A stretch of DNA of 64,000 bases from Escherichia coli. GTDB taxonomy: Bacteria; Pseudomonadota; Gammaproteobacteria; Enterobacterales; Enterobacteriaceae. The notes below the pieces were generated by a model. That model was not told the DNA's origin and ran no database searches. It was given only the letters and a program-made list of their open reading frames with translations. Below, one piece after another: positions 24,837 through 63,737 of the stretch. Each line of letters starts with the position of its first letter. The stretch's first letter is position 1. The translations under genes and the position numbers were made by a program. Location: NCBI RefSeq assembly GCF_011045215.1, contig NZ_CP049201.1; one strand, 5' to 3'.

Positions 24837-24984
24837 GTTCACTGCCGTACAGGCAGCTTAGAAAAATTGTCGGCGCATTTTCCCATTAGTTGCAAAGTTC
24901 ACTGCCGTACAGGCAGCTTAGAAATTCACAGGTAACATACTCCACCCGCCCACCATGTTCACTGCCGTACAGGTAGATAAAATG
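24837..24984 (+). CRISPR. Orphan type I-F-like CRISPR mini-array (3 repeats, 2 spacers)
   Basis: 28-bp repeat GTTCACTGCCGTACAGGCAGCTTAGAAA at 24837-24864 and 24897-24924; degenerate third copy at 24957-24984; two 32-bp spacers; AT-rich leader-like sequence upstream; no cas genes in window. Confidence 0.85.
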
Positions 24985-25041
24985 CGAAAAAAAAGCTCGT
25001 ACTTTCGTTCGAGCTCTTCTTTAAATATGGCGGTGAGGGGG
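24982..25041. repeat. att-like direct repeat copy 1 (tRNA-Ser 3' end plus terminator)
   Basis: 25028-25046 is the reverse complement of the last 19 nt of tRNA-Ser(GGA), preceded by hairpin plus A-run (a minus-strand terminator); the 60-bp unit recurs at 25161-25220. Confidence 0.7.
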
Positions 25042-25160
25042 GGATTGACTCGCTTCGCTCGCCCTGCGGGCAGCCCACTCACTGCGTTCGTGGTCTGTCC
25101 AACTGGCTGCGCCAGTTGTCGAACCCCGGTCGGGGCTTCTCACCCCCCCTGGAGTGCATT

Positions 25161-25220
25161 ATGCGAAAAAAAAGCTCGCACTTTCGTACGAGCTCTTCTT
25201 TAAATATGGCGGTGAGGGGG
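25161..25220. repeat. att-like direct repeat copy 2 (island left junction)
   Basis: Near-identical to 24982-25041 (2 mismatches); the tRNA-like match is shorter (about 14 nt); lies directly upstream of the integrase gene. Confidence 0.7.
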
Positions 25221-25380: not shown

Positions 25381-26583
25381 ATGGCAGTATTGACGGATAC
25401 GAAAGCAAGACATATCAAACCTGATGACAAACCATTGCCCCATGGGGGAATTACCGGACTGACCCTTCATCCTTCTTCAGTAAAGGGGCGGGGGAAATGG
25501 GTTTTTCGTTATGTAAGTCCGGTGACACAAAAAAGACGTAATGCTGGATTGGGAACTTACCCAGAGGTCAGTATTGCTGAAGCTGCACGTACTGCCCGGA
25601 TAATGCGAGAGCAACTTGCTGCAGGTGATGATCCTCTGGAGATTAAAAAGGCTGAATCTGAGAAAGTCGTTATCCCAACATTTGCCGATGCAGCCAGGCG
25701 TGTACATGCAGAACTGTCTCCTGGATGGGAAAATCCAAAGCATGTAAGGCAGTGGTTATCGACGCTTGAGAATTACGCGTTTCCTCAACTGGGAGCAAAA
25801 ACGCTGGATTCGATTACGGCTGCGGACGTGGCAGAAACATTGCGTCCAGTCTGGTTAACCTTGTCAGAAACGGCAAGCCGGGTTAAACAGCGCATTCATG
25901 TTGTTATGCAGTGGGGATGGGCGCACGGTTTTTGTGTGGCAAATCCTGTTGATGTGGTTGACCATTTGCTTCCTCAGCAGACAAGAGGACGTGATGAACA
26001 CCAACCCGCAATGCCCTGGAGGCAGTTACCGCTTTTTGTGGCGACCAGTGTGTATAGTGATGAACCTTATAATGTTACCCGCGCACTGTTATTAATGGTG
26101 ATACTTACAGCAACTCGCTCGGGCGAAGCCAGGGGAATGCGCTGGGCTGAAATTGATTTTCATAAGCGGGTATGGACTATACCTGCAGAAAGAATGAAAG
26201 CTAGGCTACAGCATCGTGTTCCTTTATCCCGGCAGGCTATTTACATTCTGGAAAATATACGTGGCCTGCATGATGAACTGGTGTTCCCTTCACCCAGAAA
26301 GCAGCAGATCCTTTCCGATATGGTGTTGACAAGTTTTCTGCGTAAAAAGAAAGCCGTCAGTGACATTCCGGGGCGAGTTGCCACGGCACATGGTTTTCGC
26401 TCAACATTCAGGGACTGGTGTAGTGAACAGGGGTATTCGCGGGATCTGGCGGAAAGGGCGCTCGCTCATACGCTGAAAAATAAGGTTGAGGCGGCATATC
26501 ATCGCACTGATCTACTGGAGCAGCGTGTACCGATGATGCAGGCATGGGCGGATTATGTGATGTCTCAAATTGTGAATAAATAA
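25381..26583 (+). CDS. Tyrosine recombinase, P4-type integrase family
   Basis: 400-aa ORF; N-terminal arm-binding-like region and C-terminal catalytic region (AHGFRSTFRDW...LAH...Y); adjacent to att repeat. Confidence 0.85.
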   Translation: MAVLTDTKARHIKPDDKPLPHGGITGLTLHPSSVKGRGKWVFRYVSPVTQKRRNAGLGTYPEVSIAEAARTARIMREQLAAGDDPLEIKKAESEKVVIPTFADAARRVHAELSPGWENPKHVRQWLSTLENYAFPQLGAKTLDSITAADVAETLRPVWLTLSETASRVKQRIHVVMQWGWAHGFCVANPVDVVDHLLPQQTRGRDEHQPAMPWRQLPLFVATSVYSDEPYNVTRALLLMVILTATRSGEARGMRWAEIDFHKRVWTIPAERMKARLQHRVPLSRQAIYILENIRGLHDELVFPSPRKQQILSDMVLTSFLRKKKAVSDIPGRVATAHGFRSTFRDWCSEQGYSRDLAERALAHTLKNKVEAAYHRTDLLEQRVPMMQAWADYVMSQIVNK

Positions 26584-54852: not shown

Positions 54853-56355
54853 TCACCCGGAGAAGGTAAATCCCTCAAGGGGCAGCAACTCTGCCAGTCG
54901 CTCCTCTGGCCATTCCGGCAGACGCGCCAGGACGTCTGTCAGCCAGGCATGTGGCTCCAGACCATTACGTTTTGCCGTTTCCAGAAGGCTCATTATCTGT
55001 GCCGCGCGGTTTCCGGCCATCAGTGAACCGGCGAACAACCAGGCCTTTCGTCCCATAACGACCGGGCGGATAGCACGCTCGCAGATATTGTTGTCCAGGG
55101 GCACGGCTCCGTCACCCAGGAAGCAGCTCAGTTCATCGCGCCGGTTCAGGATATAATTAATCGCTTTGTTTAGTGGTCCGTCGGGCGGACAGCACGGCTC
55201 CTGCTCTTCAAGCCAGGCAAACAGGTCATTCACTATCGGCCGGGAATACCGTTGTCGCCATTGCCGTATTTTTTCCACAGGACGTTCACGGATGAACTTC
55301 TCAATGCGATAAAGACCCGCGATTTTTCTCAGCGCCATGGCTGCACGGGGCTCCCTGCTGGCCTTATACAGACTGGCGAAGCCGCGTCTTGCGTGGCTCC
55401 AGCAACAGGCAGATGTAATACCGGGGTCATTATCCGCCAGAGATTTGTACACGCTGTATCCGTCACTCACCAGCGTGCCACCACGCCAGCCCTGCAGCCA
55501 GGCCTCAGGATATCTGAGGGCCCGTCCGGTCTGCGAGTCAAAACAGACGACCGGCGGGCCGCTTCTTTCTCCGCTGACGTAAGCCCACAGCCAGCCGGAG
55601 CAGGATTTACCGCCTTTCCGGGTATCAAGGAGCCTCAGGGACGTTTCATCTGCATGAATAACATCCCGTGTCAGAAGCTCGTGGCGTAACAATTTTGCCA
55701 GCGGGGCCAGTGCAGCGCCAGCAACACCGACCATATCCGCCATTGTACTGACGGGGAGCTCCACACCCATTCGGGAGAAAATGTGCTGCTGGCGATACAG
55801 GGGCAGATGGTCGGTATATTTGCTGATGACAACCTGTGCGATGACCGATGGCTCAACAGCACTTTTCGGAAGGATATGTGCCGGCATTTTTCCGCTGAAC
55901 ACTTTCTCACAGCAGGGACAGCTGTACTGCGGGCGGATATAGCGGTGGACCACAACCTGTGCGGGGATATATTCCAGCTTCTCGCTGACTTCATCGCGAA
56001 TGAAGTGCAGGGGGGCATCACAGTCAGGACAACGTTCCTCAGCTGGCGGGATAACCTTTTCAGCACGGGGAAGATGTGAAGGCAAGGGCTTACGAACAGG
56101 ACGTGTTGTTTTTTCTTCGTCCCCGGTCTGAGGAAGCAGTTTGTCCAGACGCGCCGAGATTTCTGCGATATCCGCGTCAACATCCTCTTCGAACAGGGAA
56201 CGCTGCATCCCGGCCAGCGATTCGCATTTTTTACCAAAACGCTGCTGGCGTGCGAGCTTCATCTGCTCTTCCAGGATGCGGATACGGTTCTGAAGTTCTG
56301 CAATATTCCGGTCTTTTTCCAGCACCATATTTGCAAGGTTCTGACTCTCAGCCAT
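54853..56355 (-). CDS. IS66-family transposase TnpC
   Basis: 500-aa ORF; N-terminal leucine-zipper-like coiled coil, Cys-rich zinc-finger region (CPDCDAPL...CPCCE), DDE-type core. Confidence 0.8.
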   Translation of the reverse strand: MAESQNLANMVLEKDRNIAELQNRIRILEEQMKLARQQRFGKKCESLAGMQRSLFEEDVDADIAEISARLDKLLPQTGDEEKTTRPVRKPLPSHLPRAEKVIPPAEERCPDCDAPLHFIRDEVSEKLEYIPAQVVVHRYIRPQYSCPCCEKVFSGKMPAHILPKSAVEPSVIAQVVISKYTDHLPLYRQQHIFSRMGVELPVSTMADMVGVAGAALAPLAKLLRHELLTRDVIHADETSLRLLDTRKGGKSCSGWLWAYVSGERSGPPVVCFDSQTGRALRYPEAWLQGWRGGTLVSDGYSVYKSLADNDPGITSACCWSHARRGFASLYKASREPRAAMALRKIAGLYRIEKFIRERPVEKIRQWRQRYSRPIVNDLFAWLEEQEPCCPPDGPLNKAINYILNRRDELSCFLGDGAVPLDNNICERAIRPVVMGRKAWLFAGSLMAGNRAAQIMSLLETAKRNGLEPHAWLTDVLARLPEWPEERLAELLPLEGFTFSG

Positions 56356-56474
56356 GGCTTTTGCACCATGGCAATTGCCAGAGCGCGAAGCTGTTCAGGG
56401 TCACTGGTGGTACTGAGAAGCGAGATATCCATGCGGTGGATTATATGACATCACGCATGGATATTCATTATATT

Positions 56475-56876
56475 TCATTGAGTTATTGCGTTGCTCTGAG
56501 CATCTTCGGGTTCTTCCTGGTATACCCATTTTGCCAGGTCATGCCCTTTCACCTGTTGCCAGTCAACCCCACAGACCAGCCAGTGAAACTCATCCTGTGT
56601 GAGATGCCATGTGGCATCACCTTTCCGGGGCCAGCGGAAGCTTCCCCGGTGCAGTCGTCGGGTACACAGCCATACGCCATGTTTGTCCCACCGGAGAACT
56701 TTTATGCGGGAGCGGACTTTATTGGTGAAGACAAAAGCAGCACCGTCATGCCATGCAGCGTTAAGTTCGTTCTGGACGTACTGTGTCAGTGTGTCGATAC
56801 CCCGGCGCATATCGACGGGTTTTACGACCAGGAATACGTTATCAGGCGTCAGCATGGCGAAGAGCCCGGAAAACAT
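56475..56876 (-). CDS. IS66-family accessory protein TnpB (Orf2)
   Basis: 133-aa ORF (MLTPDNVFLVVKPVDMRRG...) between tnpA and tnpC. Confidence 0.7.
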   Translation of the reverse strand: MFSGLFAMLTPDNVFLVVKPVDMRRGIDTLTQYVQNELNAAWHDGAAFVFTNKVRSRIKVLRWDKHGVWLCTRRLHRGSFRWPRKGDATWHLTQDEFHWLVCGVDWQQVKGHDLAKWVYQEEPEDAQSNAITQ

Positions 56877-57171
56877 CGGTTAACTGAGAAGGCTGGCAGC
56901 ACATCCGGATACCTCCGGGAAGGAAAAGTGTGACAGGCTCATCCGACAATGGTCTGCCATCAGCCATACCGGGAGCGCCAGACACTGAAACTGGAATAAT
57001 TTCAGGTGCTCTGGCTCGTTTTTCGGCTTTTGCAACATCCTGCGGCCACTGGCGCAGGGATTTAAACGGAATGTCGTAAAGTTCACAGTACTGTTCACGG
57101 GTAAGGCCGCTTGCGCGCCATGCGGCAACGTGATGTTTTTTCTGATCAAGCGTCCATCGTATCCTGGGCAT
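56842..57171 (-). CDS. IS66-family accessory protein TnpA (Orf1)
   Basis: 109-aa ORF with HTH-like N-terminus, overlapping the tnpB start. Confidence 0.65.
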   Translation of the reverse strand: MPRIRWTLDQKKHHVAAWRASGLTREQYCELYDIPFKSLRQWPQDVAKAEKRARAPEIIPVSVSGAPGMADGRPLSDEPVTLFLPGGIRMCCQPSQLTDVFRALRHADA

Positions 57172-57771: not shown

Positions 57772-58052
57772 TTACGCTTGGTTAATAATATGCTGAATCT
57801 GCCAAAACCTTTTATCCTGACAACTTACTGCCAAGATAAAAAGTCAGACGTCATACAGCAGAGTTATTAACAGGCAGCATACATCACCCCGACTGGAGAG
57901 TAAGCTCGCACAGTTCAAGTCATTGACGAAAAAATGTTTCACTACTGACGATACAGTGGCAGGTATTCGCAGTATTTTCCCGTTACAGAGCCGGCGTTGC
58001 CGCGCTCTGTCAGGCAGAACGGGACTGGCGCTTACTTGTTATCTGAACATTC

Positions 58053-58699
58053 ATGTGTACTATCTTTATGTTACTGATGATGCAACAACATAAATTCGTT
58101 TTTCTTCTCACAGCATTGTTAAGCACCTTCTGCCTCAATTTGTTTCCTGTGGCAGAAACAGGAAATAGCATTACTGTATTGTTACAGATTGCTGCTGATG
58201 TCAATTTATTGTATCGCCGCTGGCAGATGACAGGCCTGAGCATACTGCGGATAATTTTATTACTGCGCAGTGGTTATACAACTCAGCCCTCACAGTACTA
58301 TTATATTACAGTGCTTATCTGTTATTCTCTATTCTTCAGTCAGTTATTGTCTTCCGGCAGGTTGTTTTCTCCTCTGGCATTAATACTGAAACTGTATGCG
58401 CAGCCCTGTGCGGATTTTTACTCATCGGATATATGGGATTCTTTCTATTTGCAACACTGGAGAATCATACGTCGGGCTCTTTTCGTGGTCTTCCCAAAGA
58501 AGGGTTATTGATGATGAAGGGATTATTTTATTACTCTGTTATCAGTATACTGACTGTAGGATATGGTGACATAGTTGCCGTCATCTGGCCAATCCGTAAT
58601 GCAACCATTCTGGTTATATTACTTGACTGCGTCTATTCTCTGGTATTTATTGCACGTATTGTTGGTAGTTTTTCCGCACAAAAAAACGAACAAACGTAA
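58053..58699 (+). pseudogene. Potassium-channel-like gene with TVGYGD selectivity-filter signature, apparently frameshifted
   Basis: 58433-58699 frame encodes ...YYSVISILTVGYGDIVAVIWP... plus a following TM helix; upstream TM helices are in the same frame but without a start codon, while the ATG ORF at 58053 is in another frame. Confidence 0.45.
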
Positions 58700-58844: not shown

Positions 58845-59249
58845 TCACCAGCCCCCTGTGCCAGGTAATTGTTTTTCCACACGTATACTGGCTCGTTCTT
58901 TTTCCAGCTGACAAATCTGTCGATTTAACGCATTACGCCGGGATATATCTGTCACTCCTCCCAGCTGACTTCGCAATTCATCAATTTTCATCTGCAAAAC
59001 CAGTTTTCTCTGTTGCACTGACTGCATACGCTCAACGGATAATATGACTGAGCGACTGACGCTATCTCCCTGCTTCCTGAGTACATCCGCATGAGTATCC
59101 ATATTAGCTGAAAGCGTCTTCAGAGCCGCTTTCCCACTTTCTGATTTCAGTTTACCAATTTCCATACCAGGCTCCGCTGCAACACCAGCACCAGTCACCA
59201 GAATTACCACTATCGTAAACAAAGTCGGTAATATTACGTTCCTCTTCAC
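58845..59249 (-). CDS. Hypothetical secreted coiled-coil protein (134 aa)
   Basis: N-terminal signal-like hydrophobic segment, then heptad-like region. Confidence 0.4.
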   Translation of the reverse strand: MKRNVILPTLFTIVVILVTGAGVAAEPGMEIGKLKSESGKAALKTLSANMDTHADVLRKQGDSVSRSVILSVERMQSVQQRKLVLQMKIDELRSQLGGVTDISRRNALNRQICQLEKERASIRVEKQLPGTGGW

Positions 59250-59779: not shown

Positions 59780-60535
59780 TTAACTCGTTTTTTCGATGCT
59801 TTCCACTACCGGGGGGTTTTTCCTCAGGGACTCTCCCTGAAGGACCAGTCTGTGTGAGTTATGTACCAGTCTGTCCAGGATGGCATCTGCTGTTGTTGGG
59901 TTCTCCATCAGACCATGCCATTTATCTACCGGGAACTGGCTTACCACTATCGTGCTGCTTTGACCGTAACGATCTTCTATGAGCTCCAGAAGGTCATTAC
60001 ACTGGGCGTTACTTAACTGTTCCAGCCCCAGATCGTCCAGGATTAGAAGCTGTATTTTTTGCAACTGTTTCAGATATTTCAGCCAGCTGCCATCAACACG
60101 TCCCTGAGTCAGTTCTTCCAGTAATCGCCCGGTTCTACAGTACCGGACGCTGTGTTTCTGTCTACATGCCTGTTCGCCCAACGCATTGGCTATCCAGCTT
60201 TTGCCGCATCCTGTCGGACCGGTTATCAGCAGGTTTTTCCTGTGGATTATGTAGTGACCGTTCAGCAGCTCCCTCATCTGTTCAGCCCGCAGACCTCTTG
60301 AGGCCGGATAGCGCAGCCCTTCCGGTGTTGCCTGGTATTTCAGACCGGCATTTTTTCTCAACCGTGCCACACGATTGGTTTCTCTGCTCAGAAGCTCGTC
60401 ATCAACCAGCTGCGTCAGCCTTTCCTCGAACGACAGTTCGTCGTAAGTCTGAGGCGTTTCCCGCTGCCGTATCAGGCTCCCGGCCATCGCCGGGAGTTTC
60501 AGTTGGGTCAGTTTGTTTAACAGATTATCACTCAT
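59780..60535 (-). CDS. istB: IS21-family helper ATPase IstB
   Basis: Walker A GPTGCGKSWIANALG and Walker B LLILDDLG; start chosen at MSDNLLNKLTQL (251 aa). Confidence 0.8.
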   Translation of the reverse strand: MSDNLLNKLTQLKLPAMAGSLIRQRETPQTYDELSFEERLTQLVDDELLSRETNRVARLRKNAGLKYQATPEGLRYPASRGLRAEQMRELLNGHYIIHRKNLLITGPTGCGKSWIANALGEQACRQKHSVRYCRTGRLLEELTQGRVDGSWLKYLKQLQKIQLLILDDLGLEQLSNAQCNDLLELIEDRYGQSSTIVVSQFPVDKWHGLMENPTTADAILDRLVHNSHRLVLQGESLRKNPPVVESIEKTS

Positions 60536-60551
60536 TCGGTTGTTCCTTCTG

Positions 60552-62087
60552 TCAGTGGTAGTAGCCAGGACCACGCAGGTTTTCATGCTCTGAAGCATAT
60601 GCCGGATGTTGTTCGCCCTGGCGGGATAACGGAAGCTCAACGTTATCCCGATGATGACGCAGCAGATTGTCGATAAAGCGTCTGTCCGGGGCGTTATAGT
60701 GCAGGGCAACGTAACAGGCCTTTTCCAGCCGTTCCGGGCCGTATTTTTTCTGAAGTGCCAGCAGACCCAGGACTGCACGGTAAGCCAGCTCCGGATGGGG
60801 TTTGGCTTTCAGCATGGATTCAACCACCCGGCCTGTGGACGGACCTGTACGGTTTCCCTGCTCGATAAGGCGTTCCGGTGTCCATGTCCCATGCCGCCGG
60901 TGGCGTTCTGGCATGTGAAGCGGATTGGTTGTGTGTTTATATTCATGTGTGCTGCGCGGATGTTGCGCCACACACTGCCCCTTGTGCCAGAGTTGTACCA
61001 CCGACTGCCCCGCCTTCAGTGACAGACGCTGACCGACCAGTTCGTGTGGAACGGAGTACCAGTGACGGGCATATTCAACGTGATAGTCAGGGCCAACCTT
61101 CACGGCTTTGTATTCCGTGTATTCATAAGGTGCCAGAGGCAGCGGAGAGAGTGCTGGCGCATCCAGTATGCGGAAGCGTTCTGCACGGGTTTGATTGCCG
61201 TACCCCTTCATTGGCCGGTTATTCATGTCTGTCAGTAACTCCCGAAGGCGCGCATTCAGCGCCCTGAGCGTGTGGAAGGTTTCATTACGGATGCGGGCAA
61301 GAAGCCATCGTTCGACGATGAGGACGCCGTTTTCTGCTTTTGGTTTATCTTTAGGTTTGCGTGGTCGGGCCGGGATAATAACCGTGCCATAGTGCTCAGC
61401 CAGCGCCTGATAACTGTCGTTGATGACAGGCTCATAGCGATCGGCTTTTTTCACTGCGCTTCTGAGGTTATCGGGGATGAGCAGCTTCGGTACGCCGCCC
61501 AGGAAGGTCAGGCAACGGCTGTGGGCATTTAACCATGACATCATGTCCTGACCTTCGCACGCTTCAACATAGGTATAGTTGGACGCCCCCATTACAGCCA
61601 CGAAGATTGCCACGCGGCGTATCTCTCCGGTGTCCGGATTAATAACAGGGACCGTAGGACCACAGAAGTCGATAAAGAGCTTTTCGCCAGCACGATGCTC
61701 CTGTCGCATGGAGAGGCGTCGCGTTTTTTTCCACTTCCGGTAGCAACGGCAGAAGTGTGAGTATCCCATCGCTTTGTCACCCGCCTGTGCCTTGTATTCC
61801 ATCCACAACAGTTGGCGCGTCACGCCAGGTTTTCTCATTTCCGTATCGAAGTACAGCATGTCAGGCATAACAAGCTCCGACGCAGAGGTGTCTTTGGGCG
61901 GGTAAATGAGTTTCTCCAGCGTGTCATGGGATATATCAGCAGGTAATGGCCATGACAGAGAAGAGGCTTTGAAGCGTGCAAGAACCTCAAAAACGGTTGA
62001 GGCGCTGATGTGTAATGTCAGCCCGATACAACGGTTAGTCAGCTTCTGGTCGAACTTGAGCTGAAGGATCTTAAAACAGGTTTCCAT
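60552..62087 (-). CDS. istA: IS21-family transposase IstA
   Basis: DDE integrase-like core upstream of istB; start METCFKIL chosen, the longer ORF start at 62198 lies in flanking IS sequence. Confidence 0.75.
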   Translation of the reverse strand: METCFKILQLKFDQKLTNRCIGLTLHISASTVFEVLARFKASSLSWPLPADISHDTLEKLIYPPKDTSASELVMPDMLYFDTEMRKPGVTRQLLWMEYKAQAGDKAMGYSHFCRCYRKWKKTRRLSMRQEHRAGEKLFIDFCGPTVPVINPDTGEIRRVAIFVAVMGASNYTYVEACEGQDMMSWLNAHSRCLTFLGGVPKLLIPDNLRSAVKKADRYEPVINDSYQALAEHYGTVIIPARPRKPKDKPKAENGVLIVERWLLARIRNETFHTLRALNARLRELLTDMNNRPMKGYGNQTRAERFRILDAPALSPLPLAPYEYTEYKAVKVGPDYHVEYARHWYSVPHELVGQRLSLKAGQSVVQLWHKGQCVAQHPRSTHEYKHTTNPLHMPERHRRHGTWTPERLIEQGNRTGPSTGRVVESMLKAKPHPELAYRAVLGLLALQKKYGPERLEKACYVALHYNAPDRRFIDNLLRHHRDNVELPLSRQGEQHPAYASEHENLRGPGYYH

Positions 62088-62241
62088 AGTGCTCCTGGAT
62101 TTTCTCTTTCTGGACATTGCCGTCTCCATTGGTTTAAACACGGCAATGAAGACTGTGGCGAAAAGAGTTAATTCCCGGAGTGACTGGCAGGATGCCAATC
62201 AATGATCGGAAGCGTGCCAAATCGTGATCGATTGTGATGCC

Positions 62242-63737
62242 AACATACCCTTACCCACAAGTTTTCTGGGCTATTTCTATGGCATTAATTGACAGCATTA
62301 ATTGTGTTAATCCTGACCATATAGTCTTAGGGCCTGGAGGCGAATCATTTTTTCTTGCCAGATATCCTCCTAATCTTGCAAGCATTAAAACCGCCGTTCT
62401 TATATTCGGTATGTTTTCAGGTGGAGGCGTATTCTCTACCAATATCCAGAGATACTCATATTCTTTCTTTTCGAAAATTAAATCACAGGGTTCCTCCGGA
62501 ACCATTTTATACAATGAGCTAAGATAAAGTATTCTCCATGAGATTATAAGGTATAAGGCCAGACAGTTCCTTGTGCGTTCAAATGTCTCAAGTTGTAATT
62601 TCTCAACCTGACATCCGCTTTTTAATACCTTAAAGAAAACTTCAATCTGCCAGCGTAATAAATACCATTGAATAAGCTGTGCGGGTTCCGTCAGCTTTTC
62701 TGGAGGTACACTACTCATTAGCCACCATACTAATGGCTGGACACTTTCTGGAGCATTTATTTCCTTTGCAAGTAATACAGTTACCGTTACCGGAGAACAA
62801 CGTAACTTTCCTCTTCGACCGGTGGGTGGATGTAGCGTCAACCTTGCTAAGCGTAGCTCCTGCTGGACTTTGCGGGAAGGTTGTCCTCGTCCTTCCGGAA
62901 GGGTAAACTCAATTATCTGCTGTGGCAAAATCTGCATCATTTTTTCATTCAGGAGTAATGAGTCTCTTTTTCCTGATGAATTCAGTATAGCCCGGTTAAT
63001 GCTCTTCATTCTTACGAGCCAGTCAGCCTTTATCCCACTTTCATTTTCTGCACTCTCAAAGAGGTCGTAAATATCACCTTCACGGTCTGAAACAGAAATT
63101 ATCTGGGTATCAGGACAGGACCTAGCCAGTTCTGTTGCTTTTTTATATCCTTCTATCCACCGTCCTGTTTCTTTCTCACTGATATGTTTCCTGTGAAGTG
63201 AATCATTAGTTATTTCTTTACGACTTTGTTTCTGAGTTTTGAGTTCTTTTCTGAACCATTGATAATCATCATAAACCCCTAAGCAAATACCTGAATCACT
63301 TATAACCAATTGAGGGTGAATAAACAAATCTCGCTCATTTTCATGTCGTCTGGGACCGACGCCCTGTTTCTTTTTTTGACCAGAATAATTTAGTTCAGTC
63401 GTATCCTGTAAAACCAGAGCCCGTTTAAACTGTTTAGTCCTTTCGATGATATTTTTCTTATGGGGAGCCATGATTTTATCGGCTGAAATTTTATCACTGG
63501 AAAAGCAACGATAAGCAGCTTTTGTCTCACTCCAGGTACGGCAGGATACGGGAATACTTTCCTTTGGTGAACGGCTAAGCACACTGAGAACGTGCTTTAT
63601 TCGCTTTTCGAGCCTGATATCACCAACATTCAGAGATTCCAGCTCCTTAATAACCCAGTTTTCCATAGTTCCTCTAAATTATGGTTAATTTATCAACAGA
63701 ATAACATCACTCGGATTTATGGGTAAGGATATGGAAT
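62242..63737 (-). mobile_element. IS4-family (IS50-like) insertion sequence
   Basis: Terminal inverted repeats CATACCCTTACCCACAAGT (62244-62262) and its imperfect reverse complement at 63715-63733 bracket a single transposase gene. Confidence 0.7.
62251..63666 (-). CDS. IS4-family (IS50/Tn5-like) DDE transposase
   Basis: 471-aa ORF with DREGD motif and YREK-type signature (YLLRWQIEVFFKVLK); several segments align with remembered Tn5 transposase. Confidence 0.8.
   Translation of the reverse strand: MENWVIKELESLNVGDIRLEKRIKHVLSVLSRSPKESIPVSCRTWSETKAAYRCFSSDKISADKIMAPHKKNIIERTKQFKRALVLQDTTELNYSGQKKKQGVGPRRHENERDLFIHPQLVISDSGICLGVYDDYQWFRKELKTQKQSRKEITNDSLHRKHISEKETGRWIEGYKKATELARSCPDTQIISVSDREGDIYDLFESAENESGIKADWLVRMKSINRAILNSSGKRDSLLLNEKMMQILPQQIIEFTLPEGRGQPSRKVQQELRLARLTLHPPTGRRGKLRCSPVTVTVLLAKEINAPESVQPLVWWLMSSVPPEKLTEPAQLIQWYLLRWQIEVFFKVLKSGCQVEKLQLETFERTRNCLALYLIISWRILYLSSLYKMVPEEPCDLIFEKKEYEYLWILVENTPPPENIPNIRTAVLMLARLGGYLARKNDSPPGPKTIWSGLTQLMLSINAIEIAQKTCG

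Follow-up and report, generated by a model that had tools for sequence, protein, structure and literature searches.

A probable frameshifted pseudogene of a compact six-helix potassium channel-family protein in an Escherichia coli genomic island

The selectivity-filter signature of potassium channels, TVGYGD, is encoded in a 64,000-nucleotide stretch of Escherichia coli DNA from contig NZ_CP049201.1 (hereafter, the window). The locus raises the question of whether this motif belongs to a working channel, to a channel that has been inactivated, or to an intact gene whose frame is broken only in the assembled sequence; the last two were the alternatives offered in an earlier note made from the sequence alone. 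Between positions 58053 and 58699, two frames of the plus strand each encode part of one channel gene (Table 1). The mod 3 = 2 frame is open from 58199 to a TAA stop at 58697–58699; its translation includes LFYYSVISILTVGYGDIVAVIWPIRNATILVILLDCVYSLVFIARIV and is also read as VCAALCGFLLIGYMGFFLFATLE ... LFYYSVISILTVGYGDIVAVIWPIRNATILVILLDCVYSLVFIARIVGSF. As the earlier note had it, TVGYGD and a following helix lie together in this frame, and the HMM search that it proposed matches the stretch to Pfam Ion_trans_2 (PF07885) with an i-Evalue of 7.8e-5 and a score of 22.9 bits. Its description of the channel frame as lacking a start codon is right for the upstream hydrophobic helices, as a search for ATG, GTG or TTG from 58199 to the ATG at 58433 found none, but overlooks the ORF of 88 residues that begins at this ATG, in the middle of the outer pore helix. 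Similarly, the only ATG-initiated ORF was said to be in a different frame, which is true of the long ORF that starts at 58053 but not of the 88-residue ORF.

Table 1. Features of the channel locus and its surroundings, in window coordinates
Feature	Position	Strand	Description
Island integrase	25381–26583	+	Start of the island
IS66 copy	54853–57171		Brackets the channel remnant
lptA paralogue, 160 aa	57289–57771	+	TIGR03002, 97.7 bits (cut-off 71.7); precedes the channel gene
IS66-family tnpC relic, 130 bp	57880–58010	+	Matches IS66 tnpC genes of thousands of E. coli records at about 80% identity
ATG ORF, 152 aa	58053–58511	+	mod 3 = 0 frame
Putative channel pseudogene, whole	58068–58699	+	K+-channel-family gene over two frames
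5' part of the putative pseudogene	58068–58258	+	Codons 1–63 and two bases of codon 64; mod 3 = 0; helices S1–S3
Frameshift site	58255–58258	+	T4 where intact relatives have T5; 1-nt deletion in codon 64 (Phe), third helix
3' part of the putative pseudogene	58259–58699	+	mod 3 = 2; end of S3, S4, S5, pore helix, filter, S6, stop
Out-of-frame tail of the ATG ORF 58053/58068–58511	58259–58511	+	84 codons without homologues
ATG ORF, 88 aa	58433–58699	+	C-terminal 9 residues of S5, then pore helix, filter, S6
Selectivity filter TVGYGD	58553–58570	+	Read from the sequence; preceded by LFYYSVISIL
Codon 187, GAC (Asp)	58625–58627	+	G187D; near-invariant inner-helix glycine in the family
IS21 copy	59780–62198		Downstream of the channel remnant
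IS4 copy	62251–63666		Downstream of the channel remnant

A hybrid protein, in which the N-terminus from the mod 3 = 0 frame is joined to the C-terminus from the mod 3 = 2 frame, was used as the search query. In the protein database search, it matched intact proteins of about 207 residues over 96% of its length. These proteins are named "ion channel", "ion transporter" or "potassium channel family protein". Matches at 58–63% identity, with E-values from 3e-69 to 8e-64, come from Salmonella enterica, E. coli, E. marmotae and one genome labelled Vagococcus sp. WN89Y, and those at 42–47% identity are proteins of Hafnia, Yersinia ruckeri and Edwardsiella. Together with the Ion_trans_2 match, these scores place the signature well outside what chance would give. 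In the hybrid alignment, the homology carried by the mod 3 = 0 frame ends at ...LSILRII and that carried by the mod 3 = 2 frame runs from ...TAQWLYNSAL onward. Thus, the comparison with intact homologs that had been suggested aligns the ~207-residue channels across both frames, and the locus is one gene split by a frameshift. The 5' part aligns with the N-termini of the intact relatives (MLxxMKQHKF...). An alternative ATG is present upstream at 58053; however, the likely native start is the ATG at 58068, judged from the N-terminal pattern common to all relatives (MLLMMQQHKF here). The gene-caller product P0031, from other assemblies, begins at the equivalent ATG.

PF07885 is precomputed for nearly all of the intact relatives. 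In an alignment of 26 family members, filter residues T163, G165, Y166, G167 and D168 are invariant and V164 is conserved in at least 90%. The P-loop of the window copy is flanked by outer and inner transmembrane helices, as in the pore fold of K+ channels, but the single intact reading frame of an Ion_trans_2 channel subunit is interrupted by the 1-nt deletion at 58255–58258. The family is large: a profile search of 1.84 billion representatives returned 11,181 proteins at E ≤ 1e-3, of which 6,655 reached E ≤ 1e-10, and most of the 150 best-scoring representatives listed have 205–250 residues and match the profile over its full length. Several relatives (P0036, P0039, P0040, P0043 and others) have 430–460 residues and match the profile in two stretches; these appear to be tandem duplications of the six-helix unit, with two pore domains per chain. 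Many others (P0012, P0014–P0016, P0026, P0032–P0034 and P0057) are truncated, fused to unrelated N-termini or frameshifted; at least two such defective members carry an E. coli or E. marmotae label, and pseudogenisation seems to be frequent in this family. Nothing relevant emerged from a full-text literature search for Salmonella integrative conjugative elements that carry potassium channels, and to our knowledge no member of the RefSeq "ion channel" family of Enterobacterales has been studied experimentally.

The lesion lies within the interval 58190–58440 that had been proposed for resequencing. The window reads ATAATTTTA at this site, and four intact relatives read ATAATTTTT or ATCATTTTT. 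The window codons at the junction are CGG ATA ATT TT- ATT ACT (CGG ATA ATT TTA TTA CTG as written), compared to ATA ATT TTT GCC in three of the T5 relatives (L003, L005 and L009) and GTC ATT TTT ACC in the fourth (L007). Addition of one T to the T4 run gives a protein of 210 residues that includes RIIFITAQWLYN, with the repaired junction RIIFITAQW in the place of LLIIFATTHW in relatives. Its identity to the intact ~207-residue proteins of Enterobacterales is 60–64% (E about 1e-69). No internal gap is needed to align the repaired protein with 24 close intact relatives; BLASTP against the channel of E. coli 401651 (L018) gives 63% identity, also without gaps, and the repaired frame contains no further stop or indel. 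The T4 run in place of T5 and the gap-free alignment once the T is restored identify the break as a single-base homopolymer deletion.

Single-base lesions in homopolymers are the commonest type of sequencing error, and the gene could in principle be intact in the cell, with the missing base a fault of sequencing or assembly in the window. This is exceedingly unlikely. The same T4 run, in an identical context of 36 nt spanning the site, is present at seven other loci (L001, L002 and L011–L015), which represent the complete E. coli chromosomes of C5 and 52F4, four draft assemblies and one SRA assembly, that is, two complete genomes and five independent contigs outside the window. Therefore, the deletion is inherited and is not a sequencing error. 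Moreover, T4 sister copies bear additional, independent lesions (see below). Gene-caller products in the draft and SRA contigs with T4 reflect the split, consisting of a 145-residue protein in the mod 3 = 0 frame (P0031) and an Ion_trans_2 fragment of 62–86 residues. No T5 allele of the window sublineage was found in the protein database search, and a pattern scan built to catch T4 and T5 alleles alike (CGGATAATTTT and ATTACTGCGCAGTGG separated by 0–1 nt) had no match in JGI metagenome contigs or GTDB species-representative genomes. Of the two alternatives in the earlier note, the sequencing frameshift is thus excluded by the seven T4 loci, and the inactivated channel is supported by the two-frame homology, the repair of the alignment by a restored T and the damage in sister loci.

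A shifted frame could also be bridged during expression, and a full-length channel might be produced by programmed −1 ribosomal frameshifting or by transcriptional slippage at A-AUU-UUA. The required change of frame is indeed −1, the site carries a short U-rich stretch and both frames are open nearby; however, ATA ATT TTA in the upstream frame does not match the X XXY YYZ heptamer, and efficient transcriptional slippage needs a longer run than four Ts. Folding of the 102 nt downstream is no more stable than that of shuffled sequences (z = 0.13). The two-frame arrangement is also not conserved, with the intact relatives being single ORFs with T5, and sister alleles have gathered damage at invariant residues downstream of the site. 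On balance, we consider recoding scarcely credible.

The predicted architecture of the repaired protein was examined with AlphaFold2, using an alignment of 26 sequences (mean pLDDT 75, pTM 0.75). The main helices in the model comprise residues 9–25, 31–48, 53–69, 74–101, 107–134, 146–163 (the pore helix) and 174–209, of which S1–S4 are short and modelled with low confidence (pLDDT 55–68). The fourth helix (residues 74–101, ALTVLLYYSAYLLFSILQSVIVFRQVVF) contains one arginine, as does the family consensus, in contrast to Kv-type channels with Arg or Lys at every third position of S4. The protein ends about 10 residues past S6. Almost all entries in the top list of a Foldseek search against the PDB, which has weak E-values (at least 0.07), are K+ channels and related cyclic-nucleotide-gated channels, including Kv1.2, Slo2.2, hERG, GORK (TMq 0.56), SthK, MlotiK1 and KcsA. 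A sequence search of the PDB with the family profile gave only marginal matches, in the pore region (E 2e-3 to 9e-3). As modelled, the family represents a compact K+-channel type of six helices that lacks both voltage-sensor charges and a cytoplasmic gating domain. We infer that the intact ancestor would have formed a K+-selective tetrameric pore.

In repaired length, in its six helices plus pore helix and in TVGYGD, the protein is the same as the RefSeq "ion channel" proteins of Enterobacterales, such as WP_000912556.1 on E. coli plasmids and WP_115439636.1 on an E. coli integrative conjugative element (ICE). The window copy differs from these intact relatives in its frameshift, in 14 substitutions at conserved positions and in belonging to a sublineage that diverges from about 58146. 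E. coli Kch (NCBIfam NF007828/PRK10537) is likewise a six-helix K+ channel without a classical charged S4, and relative P0001 has weak similarity to its membrane domain (profile positions 82–217, E 1e-6); however, the score of 27.7 bits falls short of the cut-off of 425, and the family protein is half as long and lacks the RCK/TrkA cytoplasmic domain. Identity to solved pore domains (Kir6.2, KirBac3.1, KcsA, NaK and Slo2.2) and to the AKT1, KAT1, SKOR, HCN, SthK and LliK group is 10–22%, and, unlike the latter group, the repaired protein has no cyclic-nucleotide-binding or other cytoplasmic domain. A role in a defence system was considered and dropped, as the PADLOC-DB defence models matched none of three intact relatives, the lptA paralogue and the 134-residue ORF downstream of the channel gene. 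Rfam showed no RNA family in or near the channel locus.

Further lesions distinguish the known T4 alleles. In C5 and 52F4, an IS21 plus IS4 composite of about 4.1 kb lies within codons ~14–17 of the pseudogene; in the window, copies of IS21 and IS4 are instead found downstream of the gene. The composite is flanked by a 10-bp duplication, CACAGCATTG (58109–58118 of the window; 1904–1913 and 6001–6010 of L001; also in L002). The five loci L011–L015 share a 6-bp deletion of bases 58452–58457. The alleles differ by five SNPs, all but one of them nonsynonymous, and family-invariant residues are hit in sister alleles by S157F, within the pore helix, and R177H, which follows the filter. The window allele itself departs, in a leave-one-out comparison, from the family at 14 of 80 positions that are conserved at 90% or more, compared to 0–7 departures (median 0) in the 24 intact relatives. 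One of the 14 is G187D, 19 residues after the filter aspartate, at a spacing that we take to be that of the Gly99 gating hinge of KcsA. The 14 departures could in part represent a divergent, once-functional sublineage rather than decay.

Compared to its nearest intact relatives, the repaired gene has a pS of 0.71–0.79, which is saturated, and a dN of 0.24–0.28. Where calculable, dN/dS against relatives is at most 0.11, with synonymous sites saturated; the use of this ratio to date the inactivation was dropped because of the saturation, and a qualitative statement of constraint survives. Most of the 36–40% protein divergence from the nearest intact relatives presumably predates the loss of selection. 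The absence of any further stop or indel from the repaired frame suggests a young frameshift: it is recent relative to the divergence from relatives, and older than the ~1% divergence among the known alleles.

The two ORFs that remain could themselves be functional, either as an 88-residue mini-channel (58433–58699) similar to Kcv or as a 147-residue chimera (58068–58511). Viral miniature K+ channels of the Kcv type have 82–94 residues in an M1-P-M2 arrangement and share the Ion_trans_2 pore with the remnant. The 88-residue remnant is of similar size and retains the pore helix, filter and S6 (P-loop and inner helix), and its last 62 codons (58511–58699) correspond to WP_244589335.1, annotated by PGAP as "ion channel" in strain C5; P0053 is the version of this ORF encoded by the C5-type allele. 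However, its outer helix is incomplete, with only about nine hydrophobic residues before the turret, and would not span the membrane. The hinge glycine is replaced by aspartate, and S157F and R177H affect invariant residues in sister alleles. For the chimera, no stop interrupts the +1 frame over 84 codons, beginning exactly at the shift site, whereas the equivalent of 58259–58511 in six intact relatives contains 3–8 stops. Synonymous resampling left this frame open in 0.17% of trials (p ~0.002, in a post-hoc test), and the 6-bp deletion in sister alleles preserves both frames. A plain loss-of-function model does not predict the open tail. On the other hand, the only match in a homologue search with the tail is P0031, which is the same ORF in other assemblies, and the tail carries no SNP in 253 nt where ~1.3 are expected, a density that is uninformative on constraint. 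Because the test was post hoc and the ORF is destroyed by the IS insertion in C5 and 52F4, the stop-free tail is probably due to chance. Function in either remnant is very unlikely, and there is equally little to recommend the specific proposal that the frameshift created an expressed chimeric membrane protein of 147 residues, consisting of S1–S3 and a new hydrophobic tail from the +1 frame.

The surroundings of the intact relatives suggest where the pseudogene may have come from. Intact copies form part of ICE conjugation modules in E. coli 401651, Salmonella and the genome labelled Vagococcus sp. WN89Y, flanked on one side by TraU/TIGR03756 and DUF1525/TIGR03757 and on the other by a DsbA-like gene and a TraC-type ATPase. 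Some relatives in E. coli and E. marmotae adjoin a type VI secretion cluster and IS fragments. Large E. coli plasmids and islands also serve as carriers: among 5,426 complete E. coli genomes, about 181 (about 3%) have plasmid copies, for example beside IS1 on p1002-4. Speculatively, the compact K+ channels of ICE transfer modules and large E. coli plasmids might have an element-specific role, for instance in tuning the membrane potential when transfer or exclusion takes place.

In the window, the channel gene is preceded by a paralogue of lptA, which is also upstream in every frameshifted copy whose contig reaches that far (L001, L002 and L011–L014). The order lptA, channel, DsbA, with an intact channel, occurs within the ICE of E. 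coli 401651 (4010–5275 of L018). The paralogue was ruled out as a universal neighbour: it is missing from the ICE copies L003 and L007, and L005 has an unrelated gene upstream of the channel. On a 221-kb plasmid of E. coli 401651, the paralogue occurs a third time, beside F4 fimbrial genes (4028–4510 of L019). As the same lptA paralogue precedes the channel in the E. coli 401651 ICE, the pair in the window appears to be a fragment left over from an ICE module. Across lptA, the intergenic region and the start of the channel gene (~80 nt), the window is 80–97% identical to E. coli 401651; from about 58146 (58140–58150), the identity falls to 49–78%, which suggests a recombination (mosaic) boundary inside the channel gene near this position. 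Separated from the channel start by 58 bp, the IS66-family tnpC relic follows the lptA paralogue and is missing from the otherwise colinear intergenic region of E. coli 401651.

The window begins with E. coli core genes, from poxB to ybjT. The description of the locus as an island gene in the earlier note agrees with the integrase that starts at 25381 and with the IS66, IS21 and IS4 copies around the gene. Just before the integrase are two CRISPR-DR4 repeats on the plus strand (24837–24864 and 24897–24924), forming a two-repeat remnant array, and an RtT-like element on the minus strand (25028–25163). ARAGORN detected no tRNA gene in the whole window, so the attachment site of the island is not obvious. 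Elsewhere in the window, the plus strand between 38457 and 50069 encodes, in order, a 579-residue ORF, a 175-residue HlyC-family acyltransferase (Pfam E 4.6e-32) and a 3106-residue ORF whose 3' end (from 50000) matches the end of a hemagglutinin-repeat protein gene of strain 08-00022. It is unusual for an exoprotein resembling filamentous haemagglutinin to be directly preceded by an RTX-type acyltransferase. Downstream of the channel gene, the 134-residue ORF at 58845–59249 (minus strand) has a signal-peptide-like N-terminus and a coiled-coil-like remainder and belongs to no Pfam, NCBIfam or PADLOC family; RefSeq has a shorter hypothetical protein of 106 residues at this site in C5 and 52F4.

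Taken together, 58068–58699 is, with high confidence from its nucleotide sequence and homology, a pseudogene in which a frameshift has split the coding sequence of a compact six-helix member of the K+-channel family. The ancestral gene would have encoded about 207–210 residues, with S1–S4 lacking a charged S4, followed by S5, the pore helix, TVGYGD and S6, and with no cytoplasmic domain. In the lineage of the window, one T was lost from the T5 run in codon 64, within helix S3. Translation from the native start would exit the channel frame after residue 63 and terminate at 58511, and S4, S5, the pore helix, the filter and S6 would be left without a usable start. A functional channel is presumably no longer made. 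The locus is ordinary decaying island cargo among insertion-sequence debris, from a channel family that is already annotated.

One consequence concerns annotation. RefSeq places an "ion channel" CDS on the last 62 codons in C5 and calls no CDS in 52F4; the locus would be better marked as a frameshifted pseudogene of a ~207-residue channel gene. It also provides an example of the stepwise decay of island cargo, in which a homopolymer deletion was followed, in different strains, by IS insertion, a small deletion and changes at invariant residues. The window copy is uninformative on the role of the intact family, and it is the intact members, as compact K+ channels without a gating domain that are carried on mobile elements, that may interest ion-channel specialists.
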